Below, one piece after another: positions 2,645 to 47,145 of a stretch of 61,161 nucleotides of DNA (positions are counted from its first letter, which is position 1; every line of letters starts with the position of its first letter). The DNA is from a virus (Duplodnaviria > Caudoviricetes). The notes beneath the pieces are model-generated. The model saw nothing but the letters and a program-made list of their open reading frames with translations. It did not search any database and was not told the DNA's origin. The stretch covers positions 1-61,161 of the IMG/VR virus record IMGVR_UViG_3300037721_000087. One strand, given 5' to 3'. The position numbers and the translations under genes were made by a program.

Positions 2645-2674
2645 GAGTGTACGTCAACCGACAGCAACTGTCCA
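2645..2674 (-). promoter_or_regulatory. Sigma70-type promoter, leaderless transcript
   Basis: Minus strand reads TGGACA-17 nt-TACACT-caggtc-ATG(2639). Confidence 0.6.
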
Positions 2675-2688
2675 TGGGAGGGCAAGTC

Positions 2689-2967: not shown

Positions 2968-2968
2968 C

Positions 2969-13500: not shown

Positions 13501-15008
13501 CGACCGCGTTCACGACCGCGTTCGCCGCTCTGCCCATGCTGGTCACGACCGGAATGGCGGGCTTGAACCTGGCCGTCGAGATCGGCATCCAGTCGATGGC
13601 CAGCGCGGTCACGAACGGGATGACGCTCGTGACGACCGCATTCACGACGGCGTTCGCTGGGCTCGCCCTCGGCGTGACCGCAGGCATGGCAACGATCTCG
13701 CTCGCCGTCGCCACCGGGTTCATCAGCATCCAGGCCGCCTTCGCGACCGGCTGGACGCAGGTCGCAGCGAACCAGCAGGTCTACATGACCTCGATCTCGC
13801 TCGGCATCGGCGTGGCCATGACCCAGATCGCCACCGCCGTTACCACCGGGTTCGTGCCGATCACGGCCGCCTTCCTGACCGGCTGGACGACCATCGCAGC
13901 TCAGCAGACGACACAGATGGCCACGATCGCCACCTCGATCAGTATCGGCATGATCCAGCTGGCCACCGCCGTCACTACCGGGTTCGCGGGAGTCCAGACC
14001 GCCTTCACGGTCAGCTGGACGACGGTCGCGGCGACCATCGGGGCCTCGTTCGCGGGCATCATCGCCCCGGCCGTCACCGCCGGCATGGTCTCGGTGGCTG
14101 CCGCCATCACGGCCGGCACTCCGCTGCTCACGACCGCGATGACGGGCGTGTTCATCGCGCTGGCCGCCTCGGTCACCGTGGCCATGGCGCCGGTCGTGCT
14201 CGCCGTCCAGACCGGCATGCAGCAGATGGCGCTCGCCGTGCAGGCTGGTGCTGCGCTCATGGGCACCACGATGGCCACGAGCATGGCCGGGTTCGTCGCC
14301 GCCGTGCAGTCCTCGATGACCACCGCCGTTGCGATCGTGACCTCCTCGTCGGCCGCCATGACCGCTGCGATCGCCCAGCTCGGTGCCACCATCACCTCGA
14401 CGATCACGGCAGCCATGGCCGGGTTCGTCGCTGCCGTCACTAGCGGCTCCAACCAGGCGGTCGCCGCCGTGCAGAACGCCGTGACGCGCATGGTCGGCGC
14501 CCTGAACTCCGCCGTCGGCCAGTTCCGCGCGGCCGGTGCCAACATGGGCCAGGCGCTCGCCGATGGGCTGAACTCGAAGGTGGGAGCCGTCCAGGCTGCC
14601 GCCGCACGGCTCGCGCAGGCCGCCGCTGCAGCTACCGCAGCTGCAGCGCAGATCCGCAGCCCCTCCCGGGTGTTCACCGGTCTCGGCGAGCAGCTCGGCG
14701 CCGGACTCGCGGTCGGCATGGACAACTCGCACACCCAGGTCGAGCGGGCCGGCACCCGGCTCGTCGACTCGGTCACGGACGCGGTCGCCCAGGTCACCTC
14801 GGCGTTCCGCACCGACGCGTGGGCGGGCGACTTCAACTCGAAGGTGAACGCCAGTCTGGCCGGGATGGATCCCGCTCCGGCACAGGCCGGAGCAGGCGGA
14901 AGCGGGGTCGCGATCACGAACATCATCAACAACCCCCTGCCCGAGCGCGGCAGTGACACGGTCGCTCGGGTCCAGCGGCGACAGTCTTCGATGGGGATGT
15001 TCGGATGA
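10503..15008 (+). CDS. Tape measure protein
   Basis: 1501 aa, Ala/Thr/Gly-rich; 'VSVRVVPDSSGF' N-terminus, 'IRSPSRVF' C-terminal motif. Confidence 0.95.
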   Translation: MTGPGGRPVAQVSVRVVPDSSGFDERLRRELGDVRDIEVEVDVTVDKEALQRELDGTRANPVQVPVEVDRDRFDAELARISTTDLRPIEVPVDVDRGTLERAAEQAITEIDPPTLPIEVDPDTLQTSVMDAATRIDTIELPVEVDRDRFEASVQDVRSAAEIVGRDPILFQLDANEAIVRRKIAEVENDLHALQERGVEVLMNADAAPIEAKMDVIERRLGVLRNTTVSAKVTADISAAENQLSELLSRLIAIGDTDYRAQVQIETERAAADLAALLGQLESIDNRRVSAVADMDIDVLRAEAQIASFVRSASAQRINIDVDVDSARATIASSMTAISASIGNGFRSIFSGISSYFQNMGGEIVSVGPKILSLAGSLGAVVVQVGAISLAASVAGAGITAAFGAAATAVAALPGALNLLAVPIAAVVVGLDGIKAAAKTLEPEFAKVQASVSATFERGLIPVFKQLTAIFPTLQTGMNAVAQSLVGVAANLTQFITQGAQLETIRTMFTNVAQAITDMGPGLQNIIGGLLEVGSQSAVFDALTRAVNTFGAEFRASVTDVLSDGSLTSAFQGLGGMLAELSQGFVSLVENGIRTFAAAAPGVNAFLNDLTGFFNRFDWNALGTSVGNVFRGLGEALAGVDVGVIDGIEASFGRLGDLFRNASFQEDIQGMVAGLPAVIDQMRGFAQDFAAIGSGIAAAMSTWNTIDQSFRSFVDNFNASAATLGQNLGLSGPGTIGEWLTGIDDSIDQALGIIPPKTEQLGTDTAAGAERGLRGGGGSFGGAATEVFGQVEPAAAAGMAPVPGAIQSGMSPAAAALASAIGELPAVVTQGLTALEGVTMAGMIPVATGVTRGMAGVNAAMQLGLNSLGAVVTTAFAGLAPQVTTGMAGLNLAVEVGIQSMASAATNGMTTVTTAFTTAFTNLAPMVTTGMAGLNLSVEIGIQSMASAVTNGMTTVTTAFTAAFAALPALVTTGMAGLNLSVEIGIQSMASAVTNGMTLVTTAFTTAFAALPMLVTTGMAGLNLAVEIGIQSMASAVTNGMTLVTTAFTTAFAGLALGVTAGMATISLAVATGFISIQAAFATGWTQVAANQQVYMTSISLGIGVAMTQIATAVTTGFVPITAAFLTGWTTIAAQQTTQMATIATSISIGMIQLATAVTTGFAGVQTAFTVSWTTVAATIGASFAGIIAPAVTAGMVSVAAAITAGTPLLTTAMTGVFIALAASVTVAMAPVVLAVQTGMQQMALAVQAGAALMGTTMATSMAGFVAAVQSSMTTAVAIVTSSSAAMTAAIAQLGATITSTITAAMAGFVAAVTSGSNQAVAAVQNAVTRMVGALNSAVGQFRAAGANMGQALADGLNSKVGAVQAAAARLAQAAAAATAAAAQIRSPSRVFTGLGEQLGAGLAVGMDNSHTQVERAGTRLVDSVTDAVAQVTSAFRTDAWAGDFNSKVNASLAGMDPAPAQAGAGGSGVAITNIINNPLPERGSDTVARVQRRQSSMGMFG
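13146..13673 (+). repeat. About 4 tandem 132-bp (44-aa) coding repeats in tape measure
   Basis: VTTGMAGLNL(A/S)VE(V/I)GIQSMASA(A/V)TNGMT(T/L)VTTAFT.AF repeated at 132-bp spacing. Confidence 0.85.
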
Positions 15009-25104: not shown

Positions 25105-25398
25105 ATGACCGTGGAGATGATCAGCGCGATCTCCACGGGGGCGATCGGGCTCATGACCGCACTCGCCGCACTACTGGCGAACCGGTCCCGCCGCCGTAGC
25201 GAGGACACCCGCGCGACACGTCGGCTCTACCGAGACCTGCAGCGCAAGTACCACGCCGCCATGGGGCATGTCTTCCTCCTCGAGCAGAAGCTCGTTCAGG
25301 CGCGTAAGCCGGTACCGCCCCGGCCCGAGATCCTGGAATCCGACGATGACGACGACGGACCACCTCCCACTCCAGTCCGCGCCAATGCCTCCGCCTGA
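25105..25398 (+). CDS. Membrane protein (lysis region)
   Basis: N-terminal TM 'ISAISTGAIGLMTALAALLA' then coiled coil. Confidence 0.6.
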   Translation: MTVEMISAISTGAIGLMTALAALLANRSRRRSEDTRATRRLYRDLQRKYHAAMGHVFLLEQKLVQARKPVPPRPEILESDDDDDGPPPTPVRANASA

Positions 25399-26212
25399 CC
25401 CCCTGGGCGGGGTGCACCGCAAGGAAGACCGCCCGGCCGTCCGGCTGTGGCTGGTCATCCTGCTCATGGTCGTGGGCATAGGTGCCACCGTCGGTGGGCT
25501 CTACACCACGTTCAACGTCGGCCAGGTCGAGGATCAGGCAGTCGCCGCGATCGAGGAACGCGACGCCACCGCCGTGCAGGCCGAGAATCTGGCCCGCCAG
25601 GTGATCGCCGTGTGCGAGCGCGGCGAGGTCGTGCCGAGCCCGACCGGGGACGATCTGTGCCAGCGCGCGGCAGAGGTCCGGGCCGAGCCGATCCCCGGCA
25701 TCCCGGGCGCGACCGGTGCCACGGGCCCGGAGGGCGAACGAGGACCCGGACCGACCGCGCAGCAGATCGAGGGCGCAGTGGCCGCCTACCTCGCCGAGAA
25801 CCCGCCCCCGGCCGGACGGCCGCCGAACGCGGCCGAGGTGACCGCAGCGGTCGCTCAGTACCTCACCGCCAACCCTCCCGCCCCCGGACGCCCACCGACC
25901 GCGAACGAGATCGAGAACGCGGTCGAGACCTGGTTCGCGAACAACCCGCCCCCGCCCGGCCCCGAAGGTGAGCGCGGACAGGAGGGCGAGCGCGGACAGA
26001 CCGGCGAGCGCGGGCCCGGCCCGACCACTGAGCAGGTCCAACAGGCCGTAGCCGACTACCTGCAGGAGAACCCGCCCCCGCCCGGCCCGGCATGCCCGGA
26101 GGGTTCCACCCTCCAGGGCGTGGTCTACGCCGACAACACGACCGGATACGGATGCGTGCTCGACGCCCAGACCCCGCCCGAGCCGCCCGAACCAACAACC
26201 GAGGGCGGGTAG
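25385..26212 (+). CDS. Membrane-anchored collagen-like / Pro-rich protein
   Basis: TM 'LWLVILLMVVGIGATVGGLY'; G-X-Y repeats; four 'AVxxYLxxNPPPxG'-type repeats. Confidence 0.75.
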   Translation: MPPPDPLGGVHRKEDRPAVRLWLVILLMVVGIGATVGGLYTTFNVGQVEDQAVAAIEERDATAVQAENLARQVIAVCERGEVVPSPTGDDLCQRAAEVRAEPIPGIPGATGATGPEGERGPGPTAQQIEGAVAAYLAENPPPAGRPPNAAEVTAAVAQYLTANPPAPGRPPTANEIENAVETWFANNPPPPGPEGERGQEGERGQTGERGPGPTTEQVQQAVADYLQENPPPPGPACPEGSTLQGVVYADNTTGYGCVLDAQTPPEPPEPTTEGG

Positions 26213-26215
26213 CAC

Positions 26216-26605
26216 GTGGCGAGGATCGACGAAGAGCTGGAGATGCCCCGGTTCGAGGCCGGCCTGCGGATCGCGACGGTGGCTCTGCTCGGCAGCGTCC
26301 TGGTCGGGCTGGCCGCTCTGATGTTCTACCTGATCACGTTCGCGCAGGACCAGCGCGAGACCAACGAGTGCTACCAGGCCCAGATCGTCGCGCTGACCAA
26401 CTGGGCGGCCGTCGTCTCACAGGCGGGCCGGTCCGACCGGCAGGCCCAGCGCGAACTTCTGCTCGCGCAGGGCGAGTTCGCGGGCGGCCAGAGCGGCGCG
26501 CTGGAGCGCTACCTGCGCCAGCTCGACGAGGCGGACCAGACCCGGTCCGCTGCCCCCGTCCCGCCACTCACGTGCGGTCGTACCGCACCGATGAACGGGA
26601 GCTGA
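26216..26605 (+). CDS. Membrane protein
   Basis: TM 'IATVALLGSVLVGLAALMFYLITFA'. Confidence 0.65.
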   Translation: MARIDEELEMPRFEAGLRIATVALLGSVLVGLAALMFYLITFAQDQRETNECYQAQIVALTNWAAVVSQAGRSDRQAQRELLLAQGEFAGGQSGALERYLRQLDEADQTRSAAPVPPLTCGRTAPMNGS

Positions 26606-26607
26606 GC

Positions 26608-26790
26608 ATGCGCACGCCCTACGGCGAGTGGCGCGAGGACGGCAACTCCTCGTCCGGGTACTCCTGGTTCAGCACCCGCCACGACGACGAGCACGCCGAA
26701 CTGCTCGCCTACCTGATCAACCCGGACGCTCTCCCCGCGTTCGACGAGGTCGACTCGACCACGATCGTCGACGACGGGACCCCCGACTGA
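26608..26790 (+). CDS. Small hypothetical protein
   Basis: MRTPYGEWRED...; stop overlaps endolysin ATG. Confidence 0.5.
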   Translation: MRTPYGEWREDGNSSSGYSWFSTRHDDEHAELLAYLINPDALPAFDEVDSTTIVDDGTPD

Positions 26791-27683
26791 TGCCCCTCGT
26801 CCGCTCGCAAAACGGCTGGTCCGCCAACGACCGGTCCATGGTCGCCTCCTACCAGATCCCCGGCGGCAAGGTCGCGCTCCGCAAGGGCGACGTCTCGGTC
26901 ATCCTCATCTGGTGCGCCCAGCGCTGGCACGAGACCGTCGAGCCGCTCGTCTGGCCCGGCAACTGGGGCTACGCGGAGCGCCCGGTGCGCGGCTCGGCCA
27001 CCACCTTGTCCAACCACGCGTCCGGCACGGCCATCGACCTGAACGCGCCCAAGCACCCGCTCGGCGTGCGCGGCACCTTCAGCGCCGGTCAGGTCCGGGC
27101 CGTGCGCGCCATCCTCGGGTTCTGCGAGGGCGTCGTGCGCTGGGGCGAGGACTACCGCTCCCGCGCCGACGGCATGCACCTGGAGATCAACGCAGGCGCA
27201 GCCGACGTCCGCCGCGTTGCCGACAAGATCCGCGCGCTGCCCAGCAGTGGCGGCTTCGTCGCAGCCGGCAAGACGCTCGCTCCCCCGCCACCCCCACCCG
27301 CACCGCCCTGGACCGAGGAGCACCGCGTGCACATCCCCCTCCCCGTCGACGCCTACGGCCGGTTCCGCGCCACCGCGATGGTCGAGACCGCATCGGTGGT
27401 CGCCTCGGACGCCTACGCCACCTGCGCCAGCACGTGGGGCAAGACCAAGTTCCTGATCACGGTCCTGCGCCACGACGGCGCCGTGCTCGCCCAGTGGCGC
27501 CCGGTGCTGGACAACAACCGGCAGTGGGGTGACCGGCTCCCGGTCGGCGCGCGCATCATCACCTTCGAGGGCCTGGTCGAGTTCGCTCCCGTCGAGGAAG
27601 AGCGCGACGAGGACGGGAACCTGCACCAGTCCGACCCCGGCACCCAGCCCGCCGCCGCGATCTGGACCCTGCCGCCCAAGTAG
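26790..27683 (+). CDS. Endolysin, M15-family zinc peptidase with C-terminal domain
   Basis: 'SQNGW', 'WGYAERPVRG', 'SNHASGTAIDLN', 'DGMHLEI', Pro linker. Confidence 0.9.
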   Translation: MPLVRSQNGWSANDRSMVASYQIPGGKVALRKGDVSVILIWCAQRWHETVEPLVWPGNWGYAERPVRGSATTLSNHASGTAIDLNAPKHPLGVRGTFSAGQVRAVRAILGFCEGVVRWGEDYRSRADGMHLEINAGAADVRRVADKIRALPSSGGFVAAGKTLAPPPPPPAPPWTEEHRVHIPLPVDAYGRFRATAMVETASVVASDAYATCASTWGKTKFLITVLRHDGAVLAQWRPVLDNNRQWGDRLPVGARIITFEGLVEFAPVEEERDEDGNLHQSDPGTQPAAAIWTLPPK

Positions 27684-27722
27684 AACAGCCCCGGCTCCGA
27701 CCGGGTAAAGAGAGGAACCACC

Positions 27723-27998
27723 ATGACCAGCCCCGTTCCCCACACCAACGGTCTCTCCCCGAAGGCCGCTGCGGCCGGCGCGGTCGGCCTGCTCGTCGGC
27801 ATCGCGATCGCCGTGCTCAACGCCGTCCAGGACGCGAACTTGCTCGGCGACCTGGCCATGCCCCTGCAAGTCATCCTCCTGGCCGCGATCCCGCCCGTGC
27901 TCACGTTCCTGGGCGCCTACCAGGCCTCGCCCGGCAACGTCGTCAGCGGCAGCACTGCGCGGCACGAGGCGCCCCCGGTGAACGAGGGAGGGTTCTGA
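27723..27998 (+). CDS. Holin
   Basis: Two TM segments, directly after endolysin. Confidence 0.75.
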   Translation: MTSPVPHTNGLSPKAAAAGAVGLLVGIAIAVLNAVQDANLLGDLAMPLQVILLAAIPPVLTFLGAYQASPGNVVSGSTARHEAPPVNEGGF

Positions 27999-28000
27999 CC

Positions 28001-28150
28001 ATGTGGTCCGTGGTTGCGTACATCGGCGCGATCCTGTGCTTTCTGCTCGTGGTGTTCAACGCCCCGATCGCGCTCAACCTGACCGCGCTCGGTCTCGCGT
28101 TCATCGCCGTCGGCCTGCTCGTCGGCCACCTCCCGGTCCGCCGGACCTGA
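28001..28150 (+). CDS. Small two-TM membrane protein
   Basis: Hand translation MWSVVAYIGAILCFLLVVFNAPIALNLTALGLAFIAVGLLVGHLPVRRT; GGAGG upstream. Confidence 0.65.
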   Translation: MWSVVAYIGAILCFLLVVFNAPIALNLTALGLAFIAVGLLVGHLPVRRT

Positions 28151-28168
28151 CCGCACTACGCTGACCTC

Positions 28169-28546
28169 GTGGCCCTCGTCGACCAGCTGCGCGCGTGGGT
28201 CGATCTCCCCCGCAACGCAGCGCTCTTGCCCCAGATCCTCGAACTCCTCGAAGGGATGAACCTCAACATGGCCGCTGACCGCGACATGATGGCCCAGCTC
28301 GCTGCTGACCTCGACACGCTCGCCACCCCGATTGGTGACGTGCTCACCAAGTACGAGGCAGCGAACGCGCGCATCGCCGAGCTCGAAGGACAGGCCGCCG
28401 CCGACGAGGTCGCCGACCTCGACGCACTGCAGCCGGTCCGTGCGGCCTACCAGCGCATCGCTGACCGGTTCCAGGCCGAGCCCGAGGTGCCCGACGTGGC
28501 GCCGCTGCCCGAGCCGCCCGCTGACGGCGAGTCGCAGCCCGTCTGA
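28169..28546 (+). CDS. Coiled-coil hypothetical protein
   Basis: Last + strand ORF of the late operon; start uncertain. Confidence 0.6.
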   Translation: MALVDQLRAWVDLPRNAALLPQILELLEGMNLNMAADRDMMAQLAADLDTLATPIGDVLTKYEAANARIAELEGQAAADEVADLDALQPVRAAYQRIADRFQAEPEVPDVAPLPEPPADGESQPV

Positions 28547-28558
28547 TCGATCACCGCT

Positions 28559-28589
28559 CGTGACGCACATGCGTCACGGCTGGTAGTGT
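28559..28589 (+). promoter_or_regulatory. Promoter (GTGACG -35, extended -10 TGgTAGTGT) overlapped by an inverted repeat
   Basis: CGTGACGCA-CA-TGCGTCACG at 28559-28578; TG-G-TAGTGT at 28581-28589. Confidence 0.55.
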
Positions 28590-28595
28590 TCGGCC

Positions 28596-28661
28596 TCGGT
28601 CGAGCGTCCTCTCGTCCGTGAACACGAAACGCCCCCGCTCATCGAGCGGGGGCGTTTTCGT
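28596..28661 (+). ncRNA. Candidate trans-acting antisense small RNA
   Basis: Non-coding; between an extended -10 and an intrinsic terminator; contains CGTCCTCTCGTCCG (28605-28618), complementary to the early-gene RBS motif. Confidence 0.5.
28624..28661. terminator. Bidirectional intrinsic terminator
   Basis: AAACGCCCCCGCTC-ATC-GAGCGGGGGCGTTTT between convergent operons. Confidence 0.9.
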
Positions 28662-28676
28662 CGTTCCCGGGGAAGC

Positions 28677-30230
28677 TCAGCGCTCGTTGAACGCCCAGCG
28701 CAGCGCAGCTCCGGTGCTGTCGACGAGGTCGTCGTGCTGACGAGGGTCCGGGAACCGGACGAGCTGGTCCTCCAGGTCGGCGAACCGGCGCGCGTGTACG
28801 ACCTGACCTCGTTCGTAGTGCGCCAGCGCGCGCTGCGCCCGGCTGCTCTTCGAACCAGACACCCACTCCCACGTAACGCGGTTGCCCGCCCGGCCGAACT
28901 GTTCAGGCAGGGGCATCCCCCGTGGCTCCAGAACCTTCGCCCAGTGCTCGGACCCGCCTGCGTTCTCCTCGACGATCAGGGTGCGCAGGCCCGGGTTCCG
29001 CTCGGCCAGGTCATGGATCCGGCTTCTGATCTGCTCACCGGTCAACCGCGCGTGCACGGCGTGCACCACGATCGCGCGACGACGATCCGCTGAGCGTCCA
29101 ACGACGGTCATGGCGGTGAGGTCGTTCTTCGAGCCGGTCTTGAGCGCGGGGTCGATCGCCAGCACGTACTCCGCCGCGTGGAAGCGCTCGACCGGCTCGT
29201 AGCGGAACAGGTCCGGCGTCCAGTAGGTGCCGCCCCGGCCGCTGTCCGCGCGCGGGTCCATCTCCACGTTCAGCGCGTAGCTGCGCGAGCCGCGCAGGTA
29301 CTCGCCGAAGTGGGTGTCCGTCAACGCCCACCGCTGCGGCCACAGTGACCGCTCCGCGCCGGTTTCGCGATCGACCAGGACACCGGGCCAGACGTGCGGA
29401 GTGAACCCGTTCTCGACCACCCATTCGGTCGGCTCGCCCTTGGCCGTGCGCACCACGTCGTGCAGCACGCTCTGGTACGCGGTCACCGTGCCGGTCAGCT
29501 GCACGATCGTGTCTGCCCCGCCCATCGGGAGCACGCCGGCCAGCACCTTGCGCAGGATCGACTCCTTGAGCGCGGGCGAGTGGTCCTCTTCCACTGGTTC
29601 GGCGTCGTCGATCACGATCAGGCCCGCTCGCTCGGCGGCGGATCGTGCGCCGAGCGCGGCCTCGCCCAGGCCACGGGACATGATCGTGGCGCCGCGCGTC
29701 ATCACGGTCGCCGACGTGTTCGACGTCCCGCGCCCGCGCACCGGCCGGAGCACGTCGTAGTCCTGCAGCAGGAGCTCGTTCTCGTCGAGTTGGCGCCGCA
29801 AGTGGGACAGGTGTAGCTTCGCCTGCTGGTGGTTGTACGAGAACGTGAAGGCGTACGTGCGGTGGCCATGAGCCAAGGCCCACAAGGGCAGGATCATGTG
29901 CAGCCACACGCTCTTGCCCGCCCCGCGTGGAGCCACCCATGCGTTGCGCTGTCCGCCCGGCTTGCGCCACGCCTTCGCTGACGCGGCCAGGTCCAGGTGT
30001 AGCTCGCTGAACGACATGTCCGTGTGATCGGGCAGGAGCAGGTACTCCTTCGGCATGTACACGATCGCGAACCGGAGCGGGGAGTCGCGCGTGACCCGGC
30101 GCCGGTACTCGCTCGAGGCCTGCACGGCGGCCGTGCGCAGGGGCGCGATCTCGCGCAGGAACCAGTCCCGCCAGGGCGAGCCCACCGGCGGGGGTGTGAT
30201 GGTCGTGCGTTCCTGCGCGAGAGCGGTCAT
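28677..30230 (-). CDS. Second terminase large subunit-like ATPase-nuclease
   Basis: Walker A 'APRGAGKS', Walker B 'LIVIDDAE', 'LTGT', 'LWPQRW', RNase H-like 'LAIDPA...DLTA', 'IVEENAGG', 'HDDLVDS'; ATGA overlap supports start at 30230. Confidence 0.88.
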   Translation of the reverse strand: MTALAQERTTITPPPVGSPWRDWFLREIAPLRTAAVQASSEYRRRVTRDSPLRFAIVYMPKEYLLLPDHTDMSFSELHLDLAASAKAWRKPGGQRNAWVAPRGAGKSVWLHMILPLWALAHGHRTYAFTFSYNHQQAKLHLSHLRRQLDENELLLQDYDVLRPVRGRGTSNTSATVMTRGATIMSRGLGEAALGARSAAERAGLIVIDDAEPVEEDHSPALKESILRKVLAGVLPMGGADTIVQLTGTVTAYQSVLHDVVRTAKGEPTEWVVENGFTPHVWPGVLVDRETGAERSLWPQRWALTDTHFGEYLRGSRSYALNVEMDPRADSGRGGTYWTPDLFRYEPVERFHAAEYVLAIDPALKTGSKNDLTAMTVVGRSADRRRAIVVHAVHARLTGEQIRSRIHDLAERNPGLRTLIVEENAGGSEHWAKVLEPRGMPLPEQFGRAGNRVTWEWVSGSKSSRAQRALAHYERGQVVHARRFADLEDQLVRFPDPRQHDDLVDSTGAALRWAFNER

Positions 30231-30346
30231 CGGCTCAGCAACCATCCCACGATCAATAGCACCGGGACCACGAGAAAGACGGTCCAGATCCCGAGCCAGA
30301 GCAAGAACTCGAACGCCCACGCGAGGTCGTACTCGTATGTGTTCAC
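30227..30346 (-). CDS. Small TM protein
   Basis: MNTYEYDLAWAFEFLLWLGIWTVFLVVPVLLIVGWLLSR; overlaps at both ends. Confidence 0.55.
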   Translation of the reverse strand: MNTYEYDLAWAFEFLLWLGIWTVFLVVPVLLIVGWLLSR

Positions 30347-30684
30347 CACGTCCACCGGCCCTCTTCCCAGTGCCGCTCCGGCGCGTACGTGGCTGCTAAC
30401 GCGCGCACGACCGATAGCCAGACCTCGTACGCTGCGCCCTCGTCCACGGCCGAGGTGTCGCCCAGGGCAACGATCTCGCGCTTCATCTGGATGTCAATGA
30501 TCAGCTCACGGAATGTGCGTGTGGGGTCGCTGCTCGCGCGGATGAGGTCGATCTCCCCTCGGACCAGTGTCGGGAGCTGGTCTTCCATCTGGCCCTCGAT
30601 CACGCTCTTGAGCGCCTTTTCGCGCTCGTCCAGGCGTTCGAGCAGGAGCCGTGCGACGGGCTCCTGTGATCCGAATGCACTCAC
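30343..30684 (-). CDS. Hypothetical protein (possibly DUF6221-like)
   Basis: 'IQMKREIV...VVRALAATYA'; GTGA overlaps. Confidence 0.55.
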   Translation of the reverse strand: MSAFGSQEPVARLLLERLDEREKALKSVIEGQMEDQLPTLVRGEIDLIRASSDPTRTFRELIIDIQMKREIVALGDTSAVDEGAAYEVWLSVVRALAATYAPERHWEEGRWTW

Positions 30685-32195
30685 CGGTCCCACCTTCCGT
30701 GCCGGCCCGTGCGCGTGCCGTCGTTCAGCCCGATCATCGCGAGCCGGGGCGAGAATACGAACAGGATCCCGCACCACAGCGGGCCCGCGATCATCCAGCC
30801 CCACAGCGCGAACGAGGCCACGAACAGGACCGCGACCACGAGCGCGGTCACGAGCATGCCCATGCGGCGGCGGACGACGGGGTTGGCGGCCAGTGCGGAG
30901 AGCGCGAGCAGGTACGGGGTCACGGTTGGATCCTTAGTGGTCGAACATGGTCGGGCTCGATGCCGATGATGACGACCGACTGGCGGCCCTTGCGACGTAG
31001 ACGCACGGCGAGCGAGTCCGCGCGTGGTCCCTCGGTGCAGCGGTGGATGAACTCGGCGCGCACCCAGGTGGCGCCGAACAGGCCGCGGTACTCGACAGCG
31101 TCACCGGGCTGGTAGACGGTGGCCACGCGCATGCCCTCACCCACAGTAGGGCCCGTTGAACTGGTCCAGGAGCCACGCGTAGGACTGCGCGGCCGGTGCC
31201 CGCACGCGTCCCATCGTGCACAGGTCGACCACTGCACGGCCGATCTGGGCGTCGGTGAGCATCACCGGGAGCCCGTGCTGGCGCAGCTGCAGGCGCACCT
31301 TCGCGCCGAGATAGGCGTCGCACCCGCTCGCCCCGTACGGCAGCCGCGCGCAGTCCTGCGCCTGCGCCACGCCCACCGGCGCGGCCACGCTCAACGCGGC
31401 AGCGAGCAGGGCCACGGTCAAGGTCCTCTTCATCGTTCGTCCTCTCATCGGATCACCACCAGCTTGTTCGATGGCACAGGCTCATCTCGATAGGGGCCGT
31501 ATTCCCATGCCACTCGCACGTGTTCTTCGTCGACCAGCTCGATTACTTCACCAGCGCTCTGGCTGATACCACTGGTCTGCCGCACTCGCGAGTGCGTGAA
31601 CACGGGCTGGCCGTCGGCGTCGCGCACCAGCGAACCGGGCTCGCTCGTGCACTGGCCCCACTCCAGGACTCGGTACCCGCCCGGGACCGGCGGCCTCACC
31701 GGGCCACTACCCGGGTCGTGTCCCGCACCGCGCGCTTGTTCGCGTACCAGATCGCGGCCACGGCGAAGCCGGGCTCGAACACCGCGTGCGCCTCGCCGTA
31801 CGGGTCGCGCACGACCCAGCACAGGCGCTCGCCCAGGTGCCCCCAGGACTCGCGCTGCACGTGCCAGCGGATCGAGTTCATGGCGTGTCCCTGGTGTCCA
31901 GGGGCTTGAGGGAGCCCGGAGGCAAGCCGTAGAACGCTGCCACTACGTCGGGGTCCATCCGGAGTGGCCCGGAGAACCGTTCGCCCGAGGTGCCGGAGCG
32001 GAACTCGCCCTGGACCTCTACTCGCCCTACATCTTCGAGCTGGTCCAGCACGCCGCGCACGAGCCCGGCCAGGTACGTGAGGTGCACCGCCGCCGGCACG
32101 GTCGCGTCCATCGCGTGCGGCCCGGTCAGCTCGGCCGCCAGGTCCACGGCCTGGTCCGCCGCCTCGGCCAGGTGCTCGCGCAGGGGCGCGTTCAC
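30681..32195 (-). other. Six small coupled hypothetical genes (30681-30923 TM; 30920-~31132; 31137-31433 signal peptide; 31445-31699; 31696-31881; 31878-32195)
   Basis: Chain of ATGA/GTGA overlaps on the minus strand. Confidence 0.6.
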
Positions 32196-32896
32196 TTCTC
32201 GGCCTCGATCCGGTCGAGGACAGCAGCGAGTGCGTCCATGCTCTGATGGAACTCCGGCCTGCTGCTCCGGACCCAGTGAGTCGAGCTGTACTCGCGGTAC
32301 ATGGCATGCACTGCGTCGAGCAGGTCGCCAGCGTCGAGCAGGTCCCCGAACGTGGACGGGCGAATCTTCTCGCCCCCGTCCATGAGCTCGATCCCGCGCC
32401 AGCTCCCGGACGGGTACTCGGCCAAGTGCTTGCCAGCGGCGTCGTACACGTCGACCCCGCCCGCGCCGTCGGTCGACCACGAGGCGGCGGTCGGGTACTC
32501 GCGCTCGCCCGTGCCGCTCACGATGTAGGTCGGCACGAACACGCGCACGCCGGTGGGGCTGGGGGCGGACGGCTTGGGCTGTCCGAAGAACCGCATCTTC
32601 CCGTCGGGGTAGAGCCGGATCCGTTCGCCGCCCACGGCCCCGCCGTGTACGAGATCCTCGAATGGACTCGCGCCCTCCTCGTCCTGCAGCGCATCGAGCA
32701 CCGCCATCAGCGCGGCCACATGCTGCCGCGCGAGCTTCGCGCTGTCGGTCGGCCCGCCCAGCCACTCTTTGCCGCCGATCGCACCGATGAACCGGCTTAC
32801 GACCTCTCGGCTGTGAGCGTCCAGGTTGGGCGCGATCCGCGATGCGTGCGAGTCAGGGCCCAGCGCCTCAAGCTCGTCATCACTCAGTGGGGGCAT
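32192..32896 (-). CDS. Hypothetical protein
   Basis: 234 aa; GAGAGGAC RBS at 32904-32911. Confidence 0.7.
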   Translation of the reverse strand: MPPLSDDELEALGPDSHASRIAPNLDAHSREVVSRFIGAIGGKEWLGGPTDSAKLARQHVAALMAVLDALQDEEGASPFEDLVHGGAVGGERIRLYPDGKMRFFGQPKPSAPSPTGVRVFVPTYIVSGTGEREYPTAASWSTDGAGGVDVYDAAGKHLAEYPSGSWRGIELMDGGEKIRPSTFGDLLDAGDLLDAVHAMYREYSSTHWVRSSRPEFHQSMDALAAVLDRIEAEK

Positions 32897-33380
32897 GGTT
32901 ATCGTCCTCTCTCGGGAGGGCCGCCAGTGCAGCCATCACTTCGGGGTCGGGCTCTACTTCTCGTGGGGACTCGGTGACCGTGCGGGTCGGGGCGTCGAGC
33001 CCGGCCAGCTTCGCCCACCGGTCCTCGATCTTCAGCAGCCGGTCGATGGCCTGCAGCGGGTCCGCCCGCCCGCCTTTGACCTCTTCCATCACGATCTGCA
33101 CGTACTGCTCCAGGCGCCCGGCCTGTGCGGTGCGCAGGGTCTGGCGGTCGAAGATGTCCTGCCAGGGGATCTCCTCCCTGGCCTCGCGCAGGTACTTGAT
33201 GATGGTCGGGTGCGAGACCGAGTGCCCGTGCTGGCGCAGGTGCTGGGAGATCTTCCGGCTCGACATCCCCTCTTCCTCGGCGAGCCGCAGCGCCTCCTGC
33301 GCCCAGTGCGAACGCGTCCACTGGGTCCGATCGGAGGCATGAGGGGACGGCGCAACCCCGGCGCTGTCGCTCTCCGTCAC
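32880..33380 (-). CDS. HTH protein resembling a terminase small subunit (TerS2-like)
   Basis: N-terminal HTH 'GMSSRKISQHL...VSHPTIIKYL' plus 'AIDRLLKIEDRWAKLAGLDAP'. Confidence 0.65.
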   Translation of the reverse strand: MTESDSAGVAPSPHASDRTQWTRSHWAQEALRLAEEEGMSSRKISQHLRQHGHSVSHPTIIKYLREAREEIPWQDIFDRQTLRTAQAGRLEQYVQIVMEEVKGGRADPLQAIDRLLKIEDRWAKLAGLDAPTRTVTESPREVEPDPEVMAALAALPREDDNHAPTE

Positions 33381-35078
33381 CGATCATGCCCCTGTCTTAC
33401 CGTGTGTCGTAGATCCACTTACCAGCTCAGCGCATGAACACGAGCTGTAGTCGTGCCTGATCAGAACGCGTGCGAGTGCGTGTGCGGCTGGTTCGCGAGC
33501 AGGACCGCCCCGAACGAGCCGGCGTACCGGGTACGTCGCCGCCCCCGGTACGCCCACGCTCGCCAGCCGCGCATGAGCGGGCGCAGGCCCTCGACCATCC
33601 ACACCGGAATGGGCTCGTCGTCGTTCACTGCGGCCACCGGGCGGAGAGTTCGGTCAACCGCTCGTTCAGTTCGGAGAGTGTGGCGCCCAGCTCCTGGTCA
33701 GTACTGGCCTCAAGCGATGCCCGCCAGGCCTGCACGACGGCGTCGATCTGCTCGGCACACAGTTGTGCCGCCCGGACCTTGCGCCCGCCCTCGCGCGGTC
33801 CCTCCTCGTTCATGACCCGTCCTGGCGCGGGAACGGCGCGGTGTTCTGCGGAGGCTCGTTGTCACCGACGTCGAACCCGCGCCCGCCCGAGAACTGTGCC
33901 GCTTCTTTCACCAGCGAGCGCCGCTCCTGCTCGGTGCGGTAGGCGATGATCGCCGGGATCCCGAACGCCAGCACACCGGCCAGGCACCCGACCCAGGCGC
34001 CGTACGCACCGCCGAGCGCGAACATGAGCCCGATCGTGCTGACCATGAACGCGACGTAGAGCAGCGGCCGGATGACCTTGCCCTCGTCCATGCGGTTGGC
34101 CATGGGTCAGCCCCCCTCGCGCCGAGCGAGCTCGGCCGCCACCGCACTGGCGTGATCGGGCAAGAAGACCTCGACCAGCGGACCGAATCCGATCATTCCG
34201 CAGGGGTAGCCCGGCTCCTCGTCCTCGCCGATCAGGCGCACTTCGCCCATCCGATCGAGGACGTGTACGCCTGCAGGGATGGTCTCGTCGTCGAACCAGA
34301 CGCGGGGGGTTCTCGTCTCGCTCACTGGCTCGCTCCGTACGTGGAGCCGAACTCGGTCGCGGCCGGCGCGGACACCGGCTCGTCGTCGAGCCCGACCCGG
34401 GCGCGGACCTCGTTCGCCGAGCGGCGCACTGAGCGCAGGTACGCGGCCACGAGCTGGCTCATGCCCTGCTCGGCCGCCTCCTTCTCGACGCGGTCGGCCT
34501 GCTCCAGGATGAACGCGACGAGCAGGTCCGCTGCGTCGACGTTGGTCAGGAACGTGGGCAGGTCGCTGGACCGGCCCCTCTGTGGTGCCATGGTGGTCGT
34601 CCTCTCTGTGTGGGTTGGTTGTCGATCAGCGCCAATCGGTTACCTGCGGCAGGCAGTTCGTGCACCGGCCGCCGATGTGCTGCGTCGTCTTGCTGCAGTA
34701 CCCGCAGTACTCCTGGCTGTGATCCCCTCGCGGCGCGCCAGACCTGCGCGGCTGCGTGCGGGGCGGAGGCGGGCTGGACTTCTTGCTGCTGAACATTCCC
34801 ATGACGGTTGTCCTCTCTCGGTGGGTGTTCGGTTACTGCAGGAGCCAGGTCAGCACGGCGGGCGCGCGCGTGCCGGTGAGTACGAGCACGAGCAGGAGCG
34901 TGAACGGGATCGTGAGCACCAGGTCCTTGGCCTCGTCCAGGATCTTGGACCCGAGTCCGTCCCGGACCTCGTCCATGAACCAGGACCTGATCGTGGGACG
35001 GATCGTGAGCGGCTCGGGCTCGGCGGGCACGGCGGTGAACACCTCTGTGCTGCCGTGCGTCAGGTAGGTCGTGTCCAT
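33377..35078 (-). other. Small hypothetical genes (incl. 33625-33813; 33810-34103 TM; 34107-34325; 34322-34591; 34626-34802 Cys-rich; 34833-35078 TM)
   Basis: Coupled ORFs, several with the GAGAGGAC RBS. Confidence 0.6.
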
Positions 35079-39886: not shown

Positions 39887-40155
39887 GCCGCAACCTGCTT
39901 ACGCCGAACGCGCCAGCGTGCCCGGTCCAGTGCGGCGTAGGTGACCCCGAGCTCGCGCGCGATCTCGACCCACGTCATGGGTCGGTCCGGGCACCGGGCC
40001 CGCAGCAGCTCCGCCTCCTCGACCAGGTCGTCCTGCGGCCAGGTGCTGCGCGGGTGGTCGACGTGCGTCCCGTGCAGCAGCGCGAGCTGGTAGCAGGTGG
40101 GGCACAGCCCCCGCGCGCGATGCTTGCGTTCGGGGTGGCACAGCGGCGTCCTCAT
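39883..40155 (-). CDS. Zn-finger/HTH protein
   Basis: 'HRARGLCPTCY' and 'TWVEIARELGVTYAAL'. Confidence 0.65.
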   Translation of the reverse strand: MRTPLCHPERKHRARGLCPTCYQLALLHGTHVDHPRSTWPQDDLVEEAELLRARCPDRPMTWVEIARELGVTYAALDRARWRVRRKQVAA

Positions 40156-41888
40156 CGCGTCACCTTCCAGCGCTTGTCGAGCATGTTGGTCGCCATCCGG
40201 ACGTTGATCCGGTCCGAGAGCCCGGCCTTGTCCAGGCCCCTGATCTCGTCCCAGCTCAGGCCCAGGCTCAGTGCCTTCTCCTGCTGTTTGGCCGAGGCCG
40301 GGCCGGTGCGCCAGCCCCGGGCCCGGTCGGCGTATGACTTGCCCTCGGGCTGCAGCAGGGCCCAGGCCTCGGCCCTGCGCCGGGCCTCGTCGAGGGTGAG
40401 CCCGTCGTCCATCCGGACCCCGTCCTTGACCAGGCCCTTCATTCGGATGTGGCCCCAGCGGTAGGTGCCGTCCGGGTTGCGCCACAGCACGGCCATCCGC
40501 TCGCCGGTGGGCAGGAACGGGGTCCCGCGCCGCTCGGTGGCCAGCCACACGAACGGGGACGCGGTGAACAGCAGGTCCAGGTCCTCGTAAGTGGCCGGGC
40601 CCTCGAGCTTGCGCCGACCAAGACCAGCCCCTGGGCTCTCGCTCGCGCCGCACCGGCACGCCTCGTCCACACCGAGCTCGGCGGCGGCCTTGAGCGTGGT
40701 CGGCAGCCCGCACTGCTCGCACGGCAGCAGGTCCAGCGCGGCCGTGTCGTACTCCGCCGAGGGCACCAGGTCGACGAGCGTCACCAGACGCTGGTGGCGT
40801 GACGCGCCGACCACGTCCAGGATCAGGCAGTCGTCCAGCCCGGCGTGGCGGCGAAGACCACGGCCCACGCCCTGCATGTAGACCCCGGGCAAGCGCGTCG
40901 GGCGCGCCCACAGGATGCAGTTCACGCTCGGCTCGTCGAAGCCCTCGACCAGGACGAACACGTTCACGATCACGCGCGTGCTGCCGGCGGCGAGCCGGGC
41001 GTACATCTCGCGCCGCTCCGGCTGCGGGGTGGTGCCCACGACGACCTCGCACGCCACGCCCTGGGCCACGAACGCGGCGCCCAGGTCGAACGCAGACTGC
41101 ACGTCGGGCACGAATGCCATCGTCTTGCGCTCGGCCGCGTGCTCGAGCCAAGCCTCGACGATCCGGTCCGCGTCCTGCGACACCATCTCGCCCAGCTCGC
41201 CGGACTGGTAGTCGCGCCCGGCCGCCGTGGTGGACACCTTCGCCTGCGCGAGGTCGACGTGGTCGGCGACCACGACCCGGCCCACGGGGCGCTTGAGCCA
41301 CGCGTCCGCGCCGGGTTCGCACGGGCCGTCGGGCCCGTTGGTGACCGCCCACGCCAGCTCGACCCGGTGCGCGACCGACTCGAACACGTCGGCCAGCCCG
41401 AACCGGTCGTGGCGCACGAACGTGGCCGTGAGTCCGACCAGCCGGGCGCCGTCGGGCTCGTAGCACCGGGCCCACCGGATCGTCTCCAGGTAGCCCTTCG
41501 AGCCGACCCGGTGGCATTCGTCCACGATCACCAGCGTGGGCAGCTCCATGTCCTTGCGCCGGGACTCGCGCCCCAGCGTCTGGATCATCGCCGTCACGAT
41601 CGGGCGCCGGTGCTCGTTGCGCCCGGCCTGCACCCGTCCGACCGGCACCTGCGGGGCGAACAGGGCGCAGCGCTTGGTGATGTCGTCGAGCACGTCCTGC
41701 TGGTGACACAGCACCAGCACGCGCCCGCCCCGGGCCACCTCGTCGGTCGCCAGCTTGCTGAGAATATGACCCTTGCCCAGGCCGGTCGGGTGCACGATCG
41801 CCGTCCTTCGGACACCGCGCTCGAACTCGTGCGCGACCGCCGCAACGGCCTCCTCCTGGTGTGAGCGCAGGGCGACCGGGGCGCTCAC
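40152..41888 (-). CDS. SF2 DEAD/DEAH-box helicase
   Basis: 'LRSHQ', 'PTGLGKG', 'IVDECH', 'GLTAT', 'VEGFDEP', 'QGVGRGLR'. Confidence 0.93.
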   Translation of the reverse strand: MSAPVALRSHQEEAVAAVAHEFERGVRRTAIVHPTGLGKGHILSKLATDEVARGGRVLVLCHQQDVLDDITKRCALFAPQVPVGRVQAGRNEHRRPIVTAMIQTLGRESRRKDMELPTLVIVDECHRVGSKGYLETIRWARCYEPDGARLVGLTATFVRHDRFGLADVFESVAHRVELAWAVTNGPDGPCEPGADAWLKRPVGRVVVADHVDLAQAKVSTTAAGRDYQSGELGEMVSQDADRIVEAWLEHAAERKTMAFVPDVQSAFDLGAAFVAQGVACEVVVGTTPQPERREMYARLAAGSTRVIVNVFVLVEGFDEPSVNCILWARPTRLPGVYMQGVGRGLRRHAGLDDCLILDVVGASRHQRLVTLVDLVPSAEYDTAALDLLPCEQCGLPTTLKAAAELGVDEACRCGASESPGAGLGRRKLEGPATYEDLDLLFTASPFVWLATERRGTPFLPTGERMAVLWRNPDGTYRWGHIRMKGLVKDGVRMDDGLTLDEARRRAEAWALLQPEGKSYADRARGWRTGPASAKQQEKALSLGLSWDEIRGLDKAGLSDRINVRMATNMLDKRWKVTR

Positions 41889-43042
41889 CGGGACCTCACG
41901 AACTGCTCCAGCAGTGCGGCGGCCAGCCTTGGAGGGACGGCGTTGCCTGCCTGCTGGTACTGCGACCCCTTGTTGCCCGTCCACGGATAGTCGGCCGAGA
42001 ACGTCTGCAGCACGCCCGCCTCGGCAACCGACACCCGGGCGCGCAGCACGCCGGAGTCGGACACGCGGGGACCGTCGCCGGGCACCTCGAACGCAGGCGC
42101 GGCGAGCGCGGGCGGATCGGGTAGGCGCCGGATGTCCCACTGCGGCACCTTGCCGGTGATGGTCACCGACGGCTCGTCGAGCTGCCGTTCGGTGCGGCCA
42201 CGCTCAGCCGCTGTACGACCCAGGGCCGATGACCCGGCATAGTTCGAACGCTGCACGATCTCGGCGAGCTGGGCGCGGCAGCGCGCGTTACCGAACACTT
42301 CTGCCCCGCCGGTATCCGTACCACCGGAGGTGACCGTCCAGGCAGGCCGGTCGGGCAGGCCCCAGCCCAGAGCCTGGGCCATCGTGACCGGCGGCGGCAG
42401 CGGAGAGCCGTCGTAGTTGCCGTCACGGCGGTAGCGCTGATTGGTCGGCACCGGAGCGGTCGGGACGAACCCCCTGGCCGCGAGCAGCACTGCGCGCTTG
42501 CGCGTCTGTGGCACGCCGAACTCCTCGGCGTGCACGATCCCGGTCCAGGTGAAGTAGCCGAGATCCACCAGGCGTTTGGCCATGTGCTCCCACAGTTCGA
42601 TCACGCCCGGCACCTGCTCCATGGCCACCCAGTCCGGGGCCAGGCGTGCGATCCAGCGCATGGGCTGGGCCGTGAGGCGCGAACGCTCATCGGCCCATGG
42701 CACGTCCGGTGCGTCCCGGCCGATTGCGTGCAGGTCGACCAGGTCCATCACGTGTTGCCGGTCCATCTCGCCGCCCCGCTTGCCGGCCATCGAGAACGAC
42801 TGACACGGCGGGGAGGCGATGAACCCGAACAGGCCGGGGGCGAACATGGCGATCGGGTAGGTCTGTACGTCGCACTCGATCCGGGCGTGCCCGGCGCGAA
42901 GAGCTGTCACGCAGGCATCGCGCGAGTTGTCCAGACCGATGCTGGCACCGGTGAACCCGGCCAGGCGCAGACCCTCTGCCCATCCACCCGGCCCGGCGAA
43001 CAGCTCGAGGACCCTGCGGTTGTCGAGAGCCTGAGCGTTCAC
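41885..43042 (-). CDS. DNA cytosine-5 methyltransferase
   Basis: 'LFAGPGG', 'SPPCQSFS', 'EQV', 'PQTRKR', 'QQAGNAVPP'. Confidence 0.93.
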   Translation of the reverse strand: MNAQALDNRRVLELFAGPGGWAEGLRLAGFTGASIGLDNSRDACVTALRAGHARIECDVQTYPIAMFAPGLFGFIASPPCQSFSMAGKRGGEMDRQHVMDLVDLHAIGRDAPDVPWADERSRLTAQPMRWIARLAPDWVAMEQVPGVIELWEHMAKRLVDLGYFTWTGIVHAEEFGVPQTRKRAVLLAARGFVPTAPVPTNQRYRRDGNYDGSPLPPPVTMAQALGWGLPDRPAWTVTSGGTDTGGAEVFGNARCRAQLAEIVQRSNYAGSSALGRTAAERGRTERQLDEPSVTITGKVPQWDIRRLPDPPALAAPAFEVPGDGPRVSDSGVLRARVSVAEAGVLQTFSADYPWTGNKGSQYQQAGNAVPPRLAAALLEQFVRSR

Positions 43043-46542: not shown

Positions 46543-47145
46543 TCAGCTCGTGTGCTTGCGTGCGCGGTACTCGCGCTGCTGCGCGTTGTAGCTCTCTCGG
46601 TTCGCGGCCCGCCACTTCCGGTTGCTCTCGCGCCGCTTGTCCGGGTTGGCCTCCTCGTACTTGCGCTTGGTCTCGCGCACCTTCTCGGGGTTGGCCTGTT
46701 CGTACTTGCGCCGGGCCTCCCGCTGACAGGCGACGCAACGGTGGCGGCGGTACCCGTCACCGGTCGAGACCTGAACCCAATGCTCGGGGCCATGCCCTTG
46801 GGCGCACCTGCCGTCCCGCTCCCAGTCGAGTCCGTCCCGGTTGCGCCGGGCGTTGTTCTCGTTCGAGAGCAGTTCCATGTGCTCGACGTTCACGCACCGC
46901 CGGTTGTGGCACTGGTGGTGCACCGTCATGTCGTCCGGGATCGGACCGTGCACGGCGGTCCAGGCGGCACGATGGGCGGTGGTGCCGCGCATCGTGCCGC
47001 CTGAGTCCTGCCAGCCGACCTGTGCGTAGCCGTGGCTGGCCACGGAGTAGGTGCTCAGGACACAGCCGTTCTCGCCCGGCTCGACCTTCGCGAGCACCCG
47101 CTCCGCGACCCGCTTGGGGATCGGAATCCCCTTCGATGCTGGCAT
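46543..47145 (-). CDS. HNH endonuclease (free-standing, homing-like)
   Basis: 'GYAQ', 'AHRAAW', 'VHHQCHNRRCVNVEHM', 'EN'; basic 'YE.ANP.K.RE' repeats. Confidence 0.9.
   Translation of the reverse strand: MPASKGIPIPKRVAERVLAKVEPGENGCVLSTYSVASHGYAQVGWQDSGGTMRGTTAHRAAWTAVHGPIPDDMTVHHQCHNRRCVNVEHMELLSNENNARRNRDGLDWERDGRCAQGHGPEHWVQVSTGDGYRRHRCVACQREARRKYEQANPEKVRETKRKYEEANPDKRRESNRKWRAANRESYNAQQREYRARKHTS

Follow-up and report, generated by a model that had tools for sequence, protein, structure and literature searches.

The 61,161 bp stretch of DNA analysed here, IMG/VR record IMGVR_UViG_3300037721_000087 (the window; classed as linear, CheckV completeness 84%), encodes two large terminases. 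The canonical one, TerL1, lies in the packaging module with the only portal gene. The second, TerL2, is encoded at 28677-30230 on the minus strand, where it ends a leftward block of replication and recombination genes. TerL2 has been confirmed as a full-length large terminase with intact motifs that is unrelated in sequence to TerL1. The finding is real and conserved across related soil actinobacterial phages. The same leftward block contains a presumed small-terminase partner of TerL2, here called TerS2. We propose that TerS2 and TerL2 may form an accessory terminase pair that cuts or translocates DNA off the capsid, and we regard this as an even call. The terminase and portal genes of the window are the following.

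50-415, plus strand (frame open from base 2): TerS1, phrog_1496, E 4.4e-24
417-2171, plus strand: TerL1, canonical large terminase, phrog_9, E 1.2e-75
2969-4441, plus strand: portal, the sole one in the window, phrog_104, E 3.3e-97
28677-30230, minus strand: TerL2, orphan large terminase, 517 amino acids (aa), phrog_38 and Terminase_6C, ASCE (additional strand, catalytic glutamate) ATPase and RNase H-like nuclease

Identity of TerL2 and integrity of its locus

The biochemical identity of TerL2 is secure. The maximal open reading frame (ORF) extends over 28677-30320 on the minus strand and encodes 547 aa; the 517-aa form starts from the ATG at 30230 and corresponds to entry P0001 of the protein collection. 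The product matches phrog_38, 'terminase large subunit', in PHROGs (E 1.2e-57, residues 68-545) and Terminase_6C in Pfam (E 1.6e-6, 28.6 bits against a cut-off of 22.6). All motifs named in the preliminary description, which had been made from the DNA letters alone, are present in the translation: APRGAGKS (Walker A), LIVIDDAE (Walker B), the TGT of the C-motif TGTVT, and IDPA, EENAGG and HDDLVD. The AlphaFold2 model, built with 42 homologues, has a mean predicted local distance difference test (pLDDT) score of 90.6 and a predicted template modelling (pTM) score of 0.81. When this model was compared with the PDB by Foldseek, 78 matches were obtained at E<=0.001 with large terminases at the top, namely T7-like PhiV-1 TerL (8dgc_E, 2e-17), T4 gp17 (3cpe, 1e-13) and HK97 TerL (6z6d, 3e-11), followed among others by D6E, Sf6 and isolated nuclease domains. 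The PhiV-1, T4 and HK97 enzymes share the two-domain fold with TerL2 at 12-15% identity, and all three are capsid-docking packaging motors. TerL2 thus has the ATPase motifs, the acidic RNase H-like nuclease and the whole two-domain fold of a large terminase. In a BLASTP comparison of TerL1 with TerL2 the best E was 0.049, which means that similarity is undetectable. The earlier suggestion of a second, dissimilar and apparently intact large terminase in the leftward operon is borne out by the phrog_38 match, the modelled fold and this lack of similarity to TerL1.

The window is a metagenome-derived virus record without a close isolate, and such a record might in principle join two phages, here at ~28.6 kb. 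This explanation is negligible in our estimate. The stretch 27311-30817 is matched without a single difference by a Logan contig of 3507 bases, which includes the end of the late arm, the convergent junction and the whole of TerL2; this contig comes from the single public DNA run that holds the region, which may be the source sample, so that it is weak evidence alone. No RNA run was listed for the region. The read depth is even across 26000-35000 (7.4-11.3), and the GC content is uniform along the window. The recurrence of the arrangement in independent contigs is a stronger argument against a chimera than the Logan contig. Record G002 (69.9 kb, 92% complete) is collinear with the window across both arms. 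It carries TerS1, TerL1 (83% identity), portal, head and tail genes, and then, in leftward orientation, a TerL2 homologue (45% identity), upstream of which TerS2-like and 33810-like genes are found. The same junction occurs in 12 further contigs. The preliminary description had named two findings that would speak against it, a chimeric assembly and decaying orthologues; the contig, the depth and the recurrence contradict the former, and the catalytic residues retained in the homologues contradict the latter. The arrangement of TerL2 is neither an assembly artefact nor a relic.

Relatives, genomic context and conservation of TerL2

Among GenBank phages, 20 records match TerL2, all at <60% identity (best 30-35%) and all annotated as the terminase of the respective phage. 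TerL1 matches 1752 GenBank actinophage records. The family of TerL2 includes the terminases of the Streptomyces phages Yara, Gibson, Rooney, KimJongPhill and Zuko and of the Microbacterium phages OscarSo, Wyvern and Isperia (30-35% identity over 85-93% of TerL2). These packaging enzymes have the same motifs as TerL2 and a helix-turn-helix (HTH) type TerS gene upstream. In contrast to TerL2, each is the only terminase of its phage, and the gene adjoins the portal gene in Yara and KimJongPhill. The TerL proteins of the Streptomyces satellites MiniFlayer and Mulchroom also belong to the family (30-33% identity), which places the TerL2 type of terminase in an element that coexists with another phage. 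Unlike TerL2, the MiniFlayer protein is encoded with its own TerS, portal, scaffold and capsid in a 17-kb genome with terminal repeats, and it falls in the portal-linked clade described below and not in the orphan clade. Five GenBank relatives were inspected for gene order, and in four of them, Yara, MiniFlayer, KimJongPhill and Bacillus PK2, the portal gene adjoins the TerL gene. Microbacterium phage OscarSo (L079, 33 kb) has TerS and TerL; in its region 1214-4966 the sole TerL gene is followed by genes for a membrane protein, a hypothetical protein and a minor tail protein, not by a portal gene.

A word-indexed search of large protein collections gave 45 TerL2 matches, the best non-self ones at 54-57% identity, and among the 50% representatives 1627 matches were found at E<=0.001 and 195 at E<=1e-30. 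A scan of viral contigs with the single TerL2 protein returned nothing; pattern scans derived from alignment A1 returned 13 viral-contig loci, 43 metagenome-contig loci and 2 genome-contig loci, the last being an Actinospica and a Streptosporangiaceae metagenome-assembled genome (MAG). The scan pattern LWA[LI]AHG[HW] was taken from the window's own subgroup, and the sample is therefore biased to close relatives. It is also partly redundant: L007 equals L008 over 12,486 bases, and four metagenome loci are the same contigs as viral loci. In a class-wide genome sample, a TerL2-type gene at E<=1e-20 was present in 2 of 401 genomes, one of them being the centre genome itself. Judged by the MAG titles and the hosts of the GenBank relatives, the host range can be given no more narrowly than Actinomycetota.

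The loci fall into three groups according to their neighbourhood, the remaining ones being too short to classify. The orphan arrangement, in which the TerL2-type gene converges on the late arm and no portal gene lies downstream, is present in the window and in 12 distinct contigs (L004, L005, L006, L007, L012, L016, L026, L028, L029, L031, L034 and L049). Its conserved order is an HTH-containing TerS2-like gene, TerL2 and then, head to head, the tail-fibre and lysis end of the late arm. The genes convergent on the orphans are homologues of the window genes 27723-27998, 28001-150, 26216-605, 25268-26212 or 26628-27683, of a sortase-domain protein, or a PHROG endolysin. In a second group of seven contigs (L010, L013, L025, L014, L015, L038 and L045) there is no portal gene in reach and the neighbours are different, for example a transposase in L045; L053 and L054 are near-copies of L015, and the L038 contig ends soon after the TerL2-type gene. 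In the third, portal-linked group (L009, L011, L024, L033, L037, L040 and L047) a Yara/MiniFlayer-type portal gene lies within ~1 kb downstream, and in L009, L011 and L040 a capsid gene is also present.

The search for other genomes with both enzymes, which had been proposed as a check, was positive: in 9 of 11 orphan-type records a canonical TerL was detected by PHROG models or TerL1 search, far from the TerL2-type gene. It is a phrog_9 TerL in the window, G002, G005 (identical to G004), G006, G007, G009 and G013. In G001 and G003, the latter 100% complete, it is a phrog_2 TerL followed at once by a portal-MuF fusion (phrog_2662). In G008 and G012, at 57% and 53% completeness, the search returned no canonical TerL. 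The portal-linked records G010 (94% complete) and G011 (100% complete) served as controls; neither yielded a phrog_9 or phrog_2 TerL, and the TerL2-type gene is the sole terminase found in them. Since the canonical TerL belongs to either phrog_9 or phrog_2, the orphan persists beside two unrelated packaging modules and portal types.

Several of these records showed further peculiarities. In G005/G004 the phrog_9 TerL match at 29825-32398 (minus strand) spans 2.57 kb, a 909-aa open frame with one internal TGA; this span far exceeds the length of a TerL, and the gene probably contains an insert, perhaps an intein, or is fused to another gene. G005 is a provirus of a cultured isolate. TerS2-TerL2 (640-2486) occupies its near end and a tyrosine integrase (61374-61916) its far end, so that the pair would adjoin the phage attachment site attP upon excision and, in the lysogen, the host junction. 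Searches of the window, G001, G002 and G003 yielded no integrase. The pair thus occurs in one temperate phage and in phages without a found integrase. In G006, the TerL2-type gene has just downstream of it a gene for a ParA-like partition protein (L010:12256-12876, minus strand; phrog_164, E 8e-34), a hint of a plasmid-like prophage.

The contexts are reflected in the phylogeny. A quick IQ-TREE tree of 33 rows, supported by the Shimodaira-Hasegawa-like approximate likelihood ratio test (SH-aLRT) only and rooted on the very long Bacillus PK2 branch, was calculated without the intein-bearing L031, L032 and L034, duplicates and partial genes. All 11 lysis-convergent orphans included fall into one clade of 17 rows (SH-aLRT 96), together with L010, L038 and four unclassified contigs. 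The nine portal-linked genes and OscarSo form a separate clade (support 83), and L013/L025/L015 and L014/L045 branch apart from both. An unrooted run gave the same grouping. Members of the orphan clade share 35-47% identity with the window, a depth equal to that of the packaging clade, which extends over Streptomyces and Microbacterium phages.

The active sites are conserved. All 33 aligned rows retain the lysine of Walker A, the DD of Walker B, the GT.T C-motif and four acidic nuclease positions out of five; the fifth is E in 32 rows and D in L013. The 33 full-length genes extracted from the loci included no disrupted or pseudogenised copy. The ratios of nonsynonymous to synonymous substitution rates (dN/dS, Nei-Gojobori method, NG86) were 0.44, 0.40, 0.40, 0.27, 0.24, 0.20 and 0.075 for orphan pairs, and two pairs of portal-linked genes had 0.23 and 0.44. 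TerL2 shows the 45% identity given above between the window and G002, against 83% for TerL1.

This conservation bears on a role proposed earlier, that TerL2 is a decoy for Avs-type terminase-sensing defence. The best structural match, 8dgc_E, is indeed a TerL in complex with Avs3; it shows only that the fold is one recognised by Avs. TerL binding activates Avs proteins, so that an extra TerL would add a trigger, and a decoy would need neither the catalytic residues nor the TerS partner, both of which are conserved. We consider the decoy extremely unlikely.

The orphan and packaging enzymes also differ at the C-terminus. The packaging relatives used for this comparison, the nine portal-linked proteins and OscarSo, all (10/10) continue after the DDxxD motif for 24-33 residues with a basic stretch and a tyrosine within the last seven positions, ending for example in ...SSYVA, ...FSYR or ...RSYV. 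The orphan tails comprise 12-19 aa in 12 of 13 cases (27 aa in L049), and none of the 13 contains a tyrosine. The tail of TerL2 in the window has 13 aa (STGAALRWAFNER), and the basic tail with near-terminal tyrosine found in the Streptomyces and Microbacterium packaging enzymes is lacking. The proteins of the seven contigs with other neighbours have intermediate tails of 16-26 residues, two of them with a tyrosine. According to the accessible text of PMC5389665, which cites lambda and T3, multiple lines of evidence place portal binding in TerL's C-terminal tail. We infer from the sequences that orphan TerL2 probably no longer docks on the portal.

The shortened tail is relevant to the view that TerS2-TerL2 is a second packaging motor working on the phage's own procapsids, in a terminal-repeat or headful mode or in making transducing particles. 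The Walker A lysine, the Walker B motif and the GT.T C-motif are all conserved, the presumed cognate TerS is retained, and the relatives beside portals are genuine packaging enzymes. The pair persists, however, with two unrelated head modules, the portal of phrog_104 in the window and the portal-MuF protein of phrog_2662 in G001 and G003; the C-terminal tail of all 10 packaging relatives is missing; and the genes reside in the replication and recombination operon, away from the head genes. On balance, a second motor seems unlikely. Among the possible roles listed in the preliminary description, which also included interference with competitors and a repurposed DNA-processing nuclease, the Avs decoy looks least likely, and a simple second packaging mode is argued against by the tail loss and the two portal types.

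The TerS2-TerL2 block and the layout of the window

The genes upstream of TerL2 in the leftward block, as far as they are relevant to it, are the following.

30227-30355, minus strand: hydrophobic 42-aa ORF, GC content at third codon positions (GC3) 0.86, its TGA overlapping the ATG of TerL2
30343-32896, minus strand: small ORFs separating TerS2 from TerL2, a variable block without family matches
32880-33380, minus strand: TerS2, presumed small-terminase partner, 166 aa, assigned by synteny and weak homology
33810-34103, minus strand: predicted membrane protein of 97 aa, kept upstream of TerS2 in related loci

The stop codon of the 42-aa ORF and the start codon of TerL2 overlap as ATGA at 30230-30227, which makes the coupling of TerL2 to small genes, as read from the sequence earlier, plausible. 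The small ORFs of 30343-32896 gave no Pfam, PHROG or PADLOC match and have no tblastn counterparts in related loci. The 33810-34103 protein found no match in the family scans, and its homologues were detected by tblastn in L004, L005, L006, L029, L031 and L034.

The suggestion that the 32880-33380 protein deserved pairing with TerL2 proved useful, as synteny and weak homology mark its gene as a presumed TerS-like partner. TerS2 combines an HTH at its N-terminus with two long helices and a KLxGLDAPTR motif; its homologues share the HTH, the two helices, K-L-x-G-x-x-A-P-x-[RK] and an acidic C-terminus. The AlphaFold2 model (pLDDT 82.6) shows the HTH and long-helix architecture. Homologues are found upstream of the TerL2-type gene in L004, L005, L006, L007, L028, L029 and L034. 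The two genes overlap in L007; elsewhere 1-3.5 kb of unrelated small ORFs, once with an HNH gene, separate them. In the portal-linked L037 the gene immediately upstream of the packaging TerL gene encodes a TerS2 homologue (35% over 114 aa). This L037 protein is itself similar to the KimJongPhill product annotated as small terminase (30% over 127 aa); the E-values for L037 and KimJongPhill, 5e-12 and 6e-11, come from a tiny local database and are hence generous. The family matches of TerS2 are a weak Tc3-type HTH and a weak hit to phrog_645, labelled 'Rnase E' (E 3.6e-10). Against GenBank phages tblastn gave nothing at E<=0.01, BLASTP against MiniFlayer TerS was not significant (E 1.1), and a PDB profile search with TerS2 alignment A2 returned HTH regulators only. 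Prediction of a TerL2-TerS2 complex gave scores of 0.65, 0.06 and 0.22, with the median below the mark, and was used neither way. The protein is presumed to be the small terminase on synteny and weak homology, which do not amount to proof.

No second head module accompanies the pair. The window contains one each of portal, protease, scaffold and major head protein, and the portals and capsids of TerL2's packaging relatives find nothing in it (best E 0.23), in agreement with the earlier statement that TerL2 has no portal or capsid gene of its own. Downstream of TerL2 lie the convergent endolysin and small ORFs, with ORFs on the plus strand extending to 28546, and not a portal or capsid gene. 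Nor does the block look like a satellite of the MiniFlayer or PICI-like type: no integrase was found in the window, and no portal or capsid of the cognate type is present. Scans of 27.5-35 kb for repeats and terminators gave nothing above chance, with neither att-like flanks nor a pac-like repeat array. Conserved phage genes flank the TerS2-TerL2 block in all relatives.

The stretch separating TerS2 from TerL2 seems to be a hot spot for insertions. In L034, a homologue (L034:2606-3076, 41% identity) of the window's HNH endonuclease 46543-47145 lies between the TerS2-like and TerL2-type genes. Some TerL2-type genes are themselves interrupted: those at L031:8540-11248, L032:7650-10358 and L034:3692-6346 contain ~1.1-1.2 kb inserts, as do the genes of proteins P0009, P0014, P0047, P0060 and others. 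The inserts are located at Walker A (query residue ~106) or near Walker B (~207), and the products of 850-1030 aa are matched in two stretches, which suggests inteins. The available text of PMC5050341 describes inteins in the ATPase domain of the 'terminase-like protein' Pham3880 of cluster C1 mycobacteriophages; by this description Pham3880, an actinophage terminase-like ATPase, is comparable to the TerL2 homologues with inserts at Walker A or B.

The hot spot in the gap, the HNH gene of L034 and the inteins of L031, L032 and L034 would suit a selfish or relic cassette, that is, a leftover of recombination with a Yara/MiniFlayer-type element or a homing-like element without benefit to the phage. 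The far greater divergence of TerL2 than of TerL1 between the window and G002 would also suit it. Against this stand the depth of the clade with its retained catalytic residues, the dN/dS values <1 akin to those of the packaging relatives, the absence of pseudogenised copies among the 33 full-length genes, the position fixed across different head modules, and the lack of an integrase or replication gene in the block. Such a cassette is quite improbable.

GC3-guided ORF calling and family scans gave the window a siphovirus-type actinophage layout, with a uniform GC content of ~0.69. No tRNA was found by a tRNA scan. Beyond the genes listed above, it contains the following features.

After the head genes, plus strand: rightward late arm with major tail protein, tape measure (10503-15008) and minor tail proteins, from family scans
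25268-26212, plus strand: collagen-like fibre, late arm
26628-27683, plus strand: endolysin, phrog_1512, E 1.7e-31
27723-27998, 28001-28150 and 28169-28546, plus strand: three small ORFs closing the late arm, convergent on TerL2
~47.1 kb down to 28677, minus strand: leftward block of replication and recombination genes, then many small ORFs
From ~47.9 kb, plus strand: rightward block including a primase-polymerase (53493-55784), from ORF calls and family scans

The end of the late arm (26628-28546, plus strand) has homologues that are convergent downstream of TerL2-type genes in other loci. The leftward block encodes an HNH endonuclease, an exonuclease, a C5 methyltransferase, a superfamily 2 (SF2) helicase, a NUDIX protein and a RuvC-like resolvase. 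In it, the maximal helicase ORF (40152-42140, minus strand) overlaps the C5 methyltransferase ORF (41885-43042) by 256 bases; the true helicase start is probably further downstream, since the family match begins at residue 81. A sortase-domain protein (56946-57728; Pfam Sortase, E 1e-20) is encoded in the right-hand block of the window. Its homologues in G001, G002, G003, G005, L028, L029, L031 and L049 belong to the late arm, where they follow the tail-fibre genes and precede the small ORFs adjoining TerL2. The ORF 2647-2967 (plus strand), between TerL1 and the portal gene, shares 90% protein identity with G002 64046-64252, which has a wholly different location. The two are far closer than the flanking genes, which suggests a mobile small gene. 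The ORF has no Pfam match.

Proposed role of TerS2-TerL2 and its significance

In the proposed route, the pair would have descended from the packaging terminase of a clade whose members include phages of Streptomyces and Microbacterium as well as the satellites MiniFlayer and Mulchroom. An actinophage lineage would then have kept it at the distal end of the leftward replication and recombination operon, while the phage's own DNA is packaged by the unrelated canonical TerS and TerL beside the portal. TerS2 may bind a specific DNA site and recruit TerL2, and TerL2, without the portal-docking tail, may act off the capsid as an ATP-dependent site-directed endonuclease or translocase. The pair would be kept by selection independently of the head module and expressed with the replication and recombination genes. 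The preferred target would be foreign DNA of competing phages or satellites that use the terminase type of TerL2; replication intermediates of the phage itself and host DNA are less likely targets. A foreign target is favoured because cutting the phage's own genome would oppose cos packaging by TerL1, and because the nearest packaging relatives infect the same host groups.

Several observations weigh against such an accessory pair. The conserved C-motif and Walker motifs would be equally needed by a working packaging motor. The loss of the tail is no proof of lost docking, because an alternative model, also given in the accessible text of PMC5389665, places the portal contact in the ATPase domain. 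Foldseek found no significant PDB match for TerS2, with the G20c and P74-26 small terminases appearing only at E 0.7-1.8. None of the 10 block proteins matched a defence model of PADLOC-DB 2.0 at E<=0.01. The trees were quick, carry SH-aLRT support only and have a very long outgroup branch. The dN/dS values are rough, as synonymous sites are constrained by a GC3 of ~0.9 and the most upstream start was used for some ORFs.

A more specific form of the proposal, which we think improbable, is that TerS2-TerL2 serves as a 'terminase mimic' weapon. The recognition and cutting enzyme of a rival would have been captured and its tail lost; the pair would find the packaging site on the rival's concatemers and cut or sit there without packaging. 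The captured type would then be, with the same low probability, that of terminal-repeat phages and of satellites such as MiniFlayer. Odn of Vibrio phage ICP1 is a nuclease that borrows the DNA-recognition part of a parasite protein to cut that parasite. It is a conceptual analogue of the mimic only, since it belongs to an unrelated protein family and no satellite target has been linked to TerL2. If true, the mimic would be a phage-encoded form of packaging interference, present in lytic and temperate members.

A tailed phage is assumed to require one terminase, and TerL serves widely as a single-copy marker in phage taxonomy, in the prediction of packaging modes and in metagenome virus counts. 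In the accessible passages of the full-text literature searched (not subscription journals), no phage was described with two TerS/TerL pairs that are both intact and dissimilar to each other. The closest case is given in the available text of PMC7760394, where a truncated terminase-like protein beside the real TerL is called typical of Rak2-like jumbo phages. The Rak2-like gene shares the trait of two terminase-related genes per genome; TerL2, in contrast, is a full-length protein with two active sites and a presumed TerS of its own. The two-terminase wording in the accessible part of PMC10773633 refers to a split gene, and other hits used such wording for unrelated matters.

TerS2-TerL2 represents a deep, selected lineage of apparently complete TerS/TerL pairs that are located outside the head module and occur beside two unrelated canonical terminases. 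For phages with two terminases, TerL-based packaging predictions and marker-gene counts will be wrong. If the proposed role is true, the terminase scaffold has taken on a second job independent of the capsid, and the pair offers a testable system for what a TerS-guided ATPase-nuclease does once it is freed from the portal.

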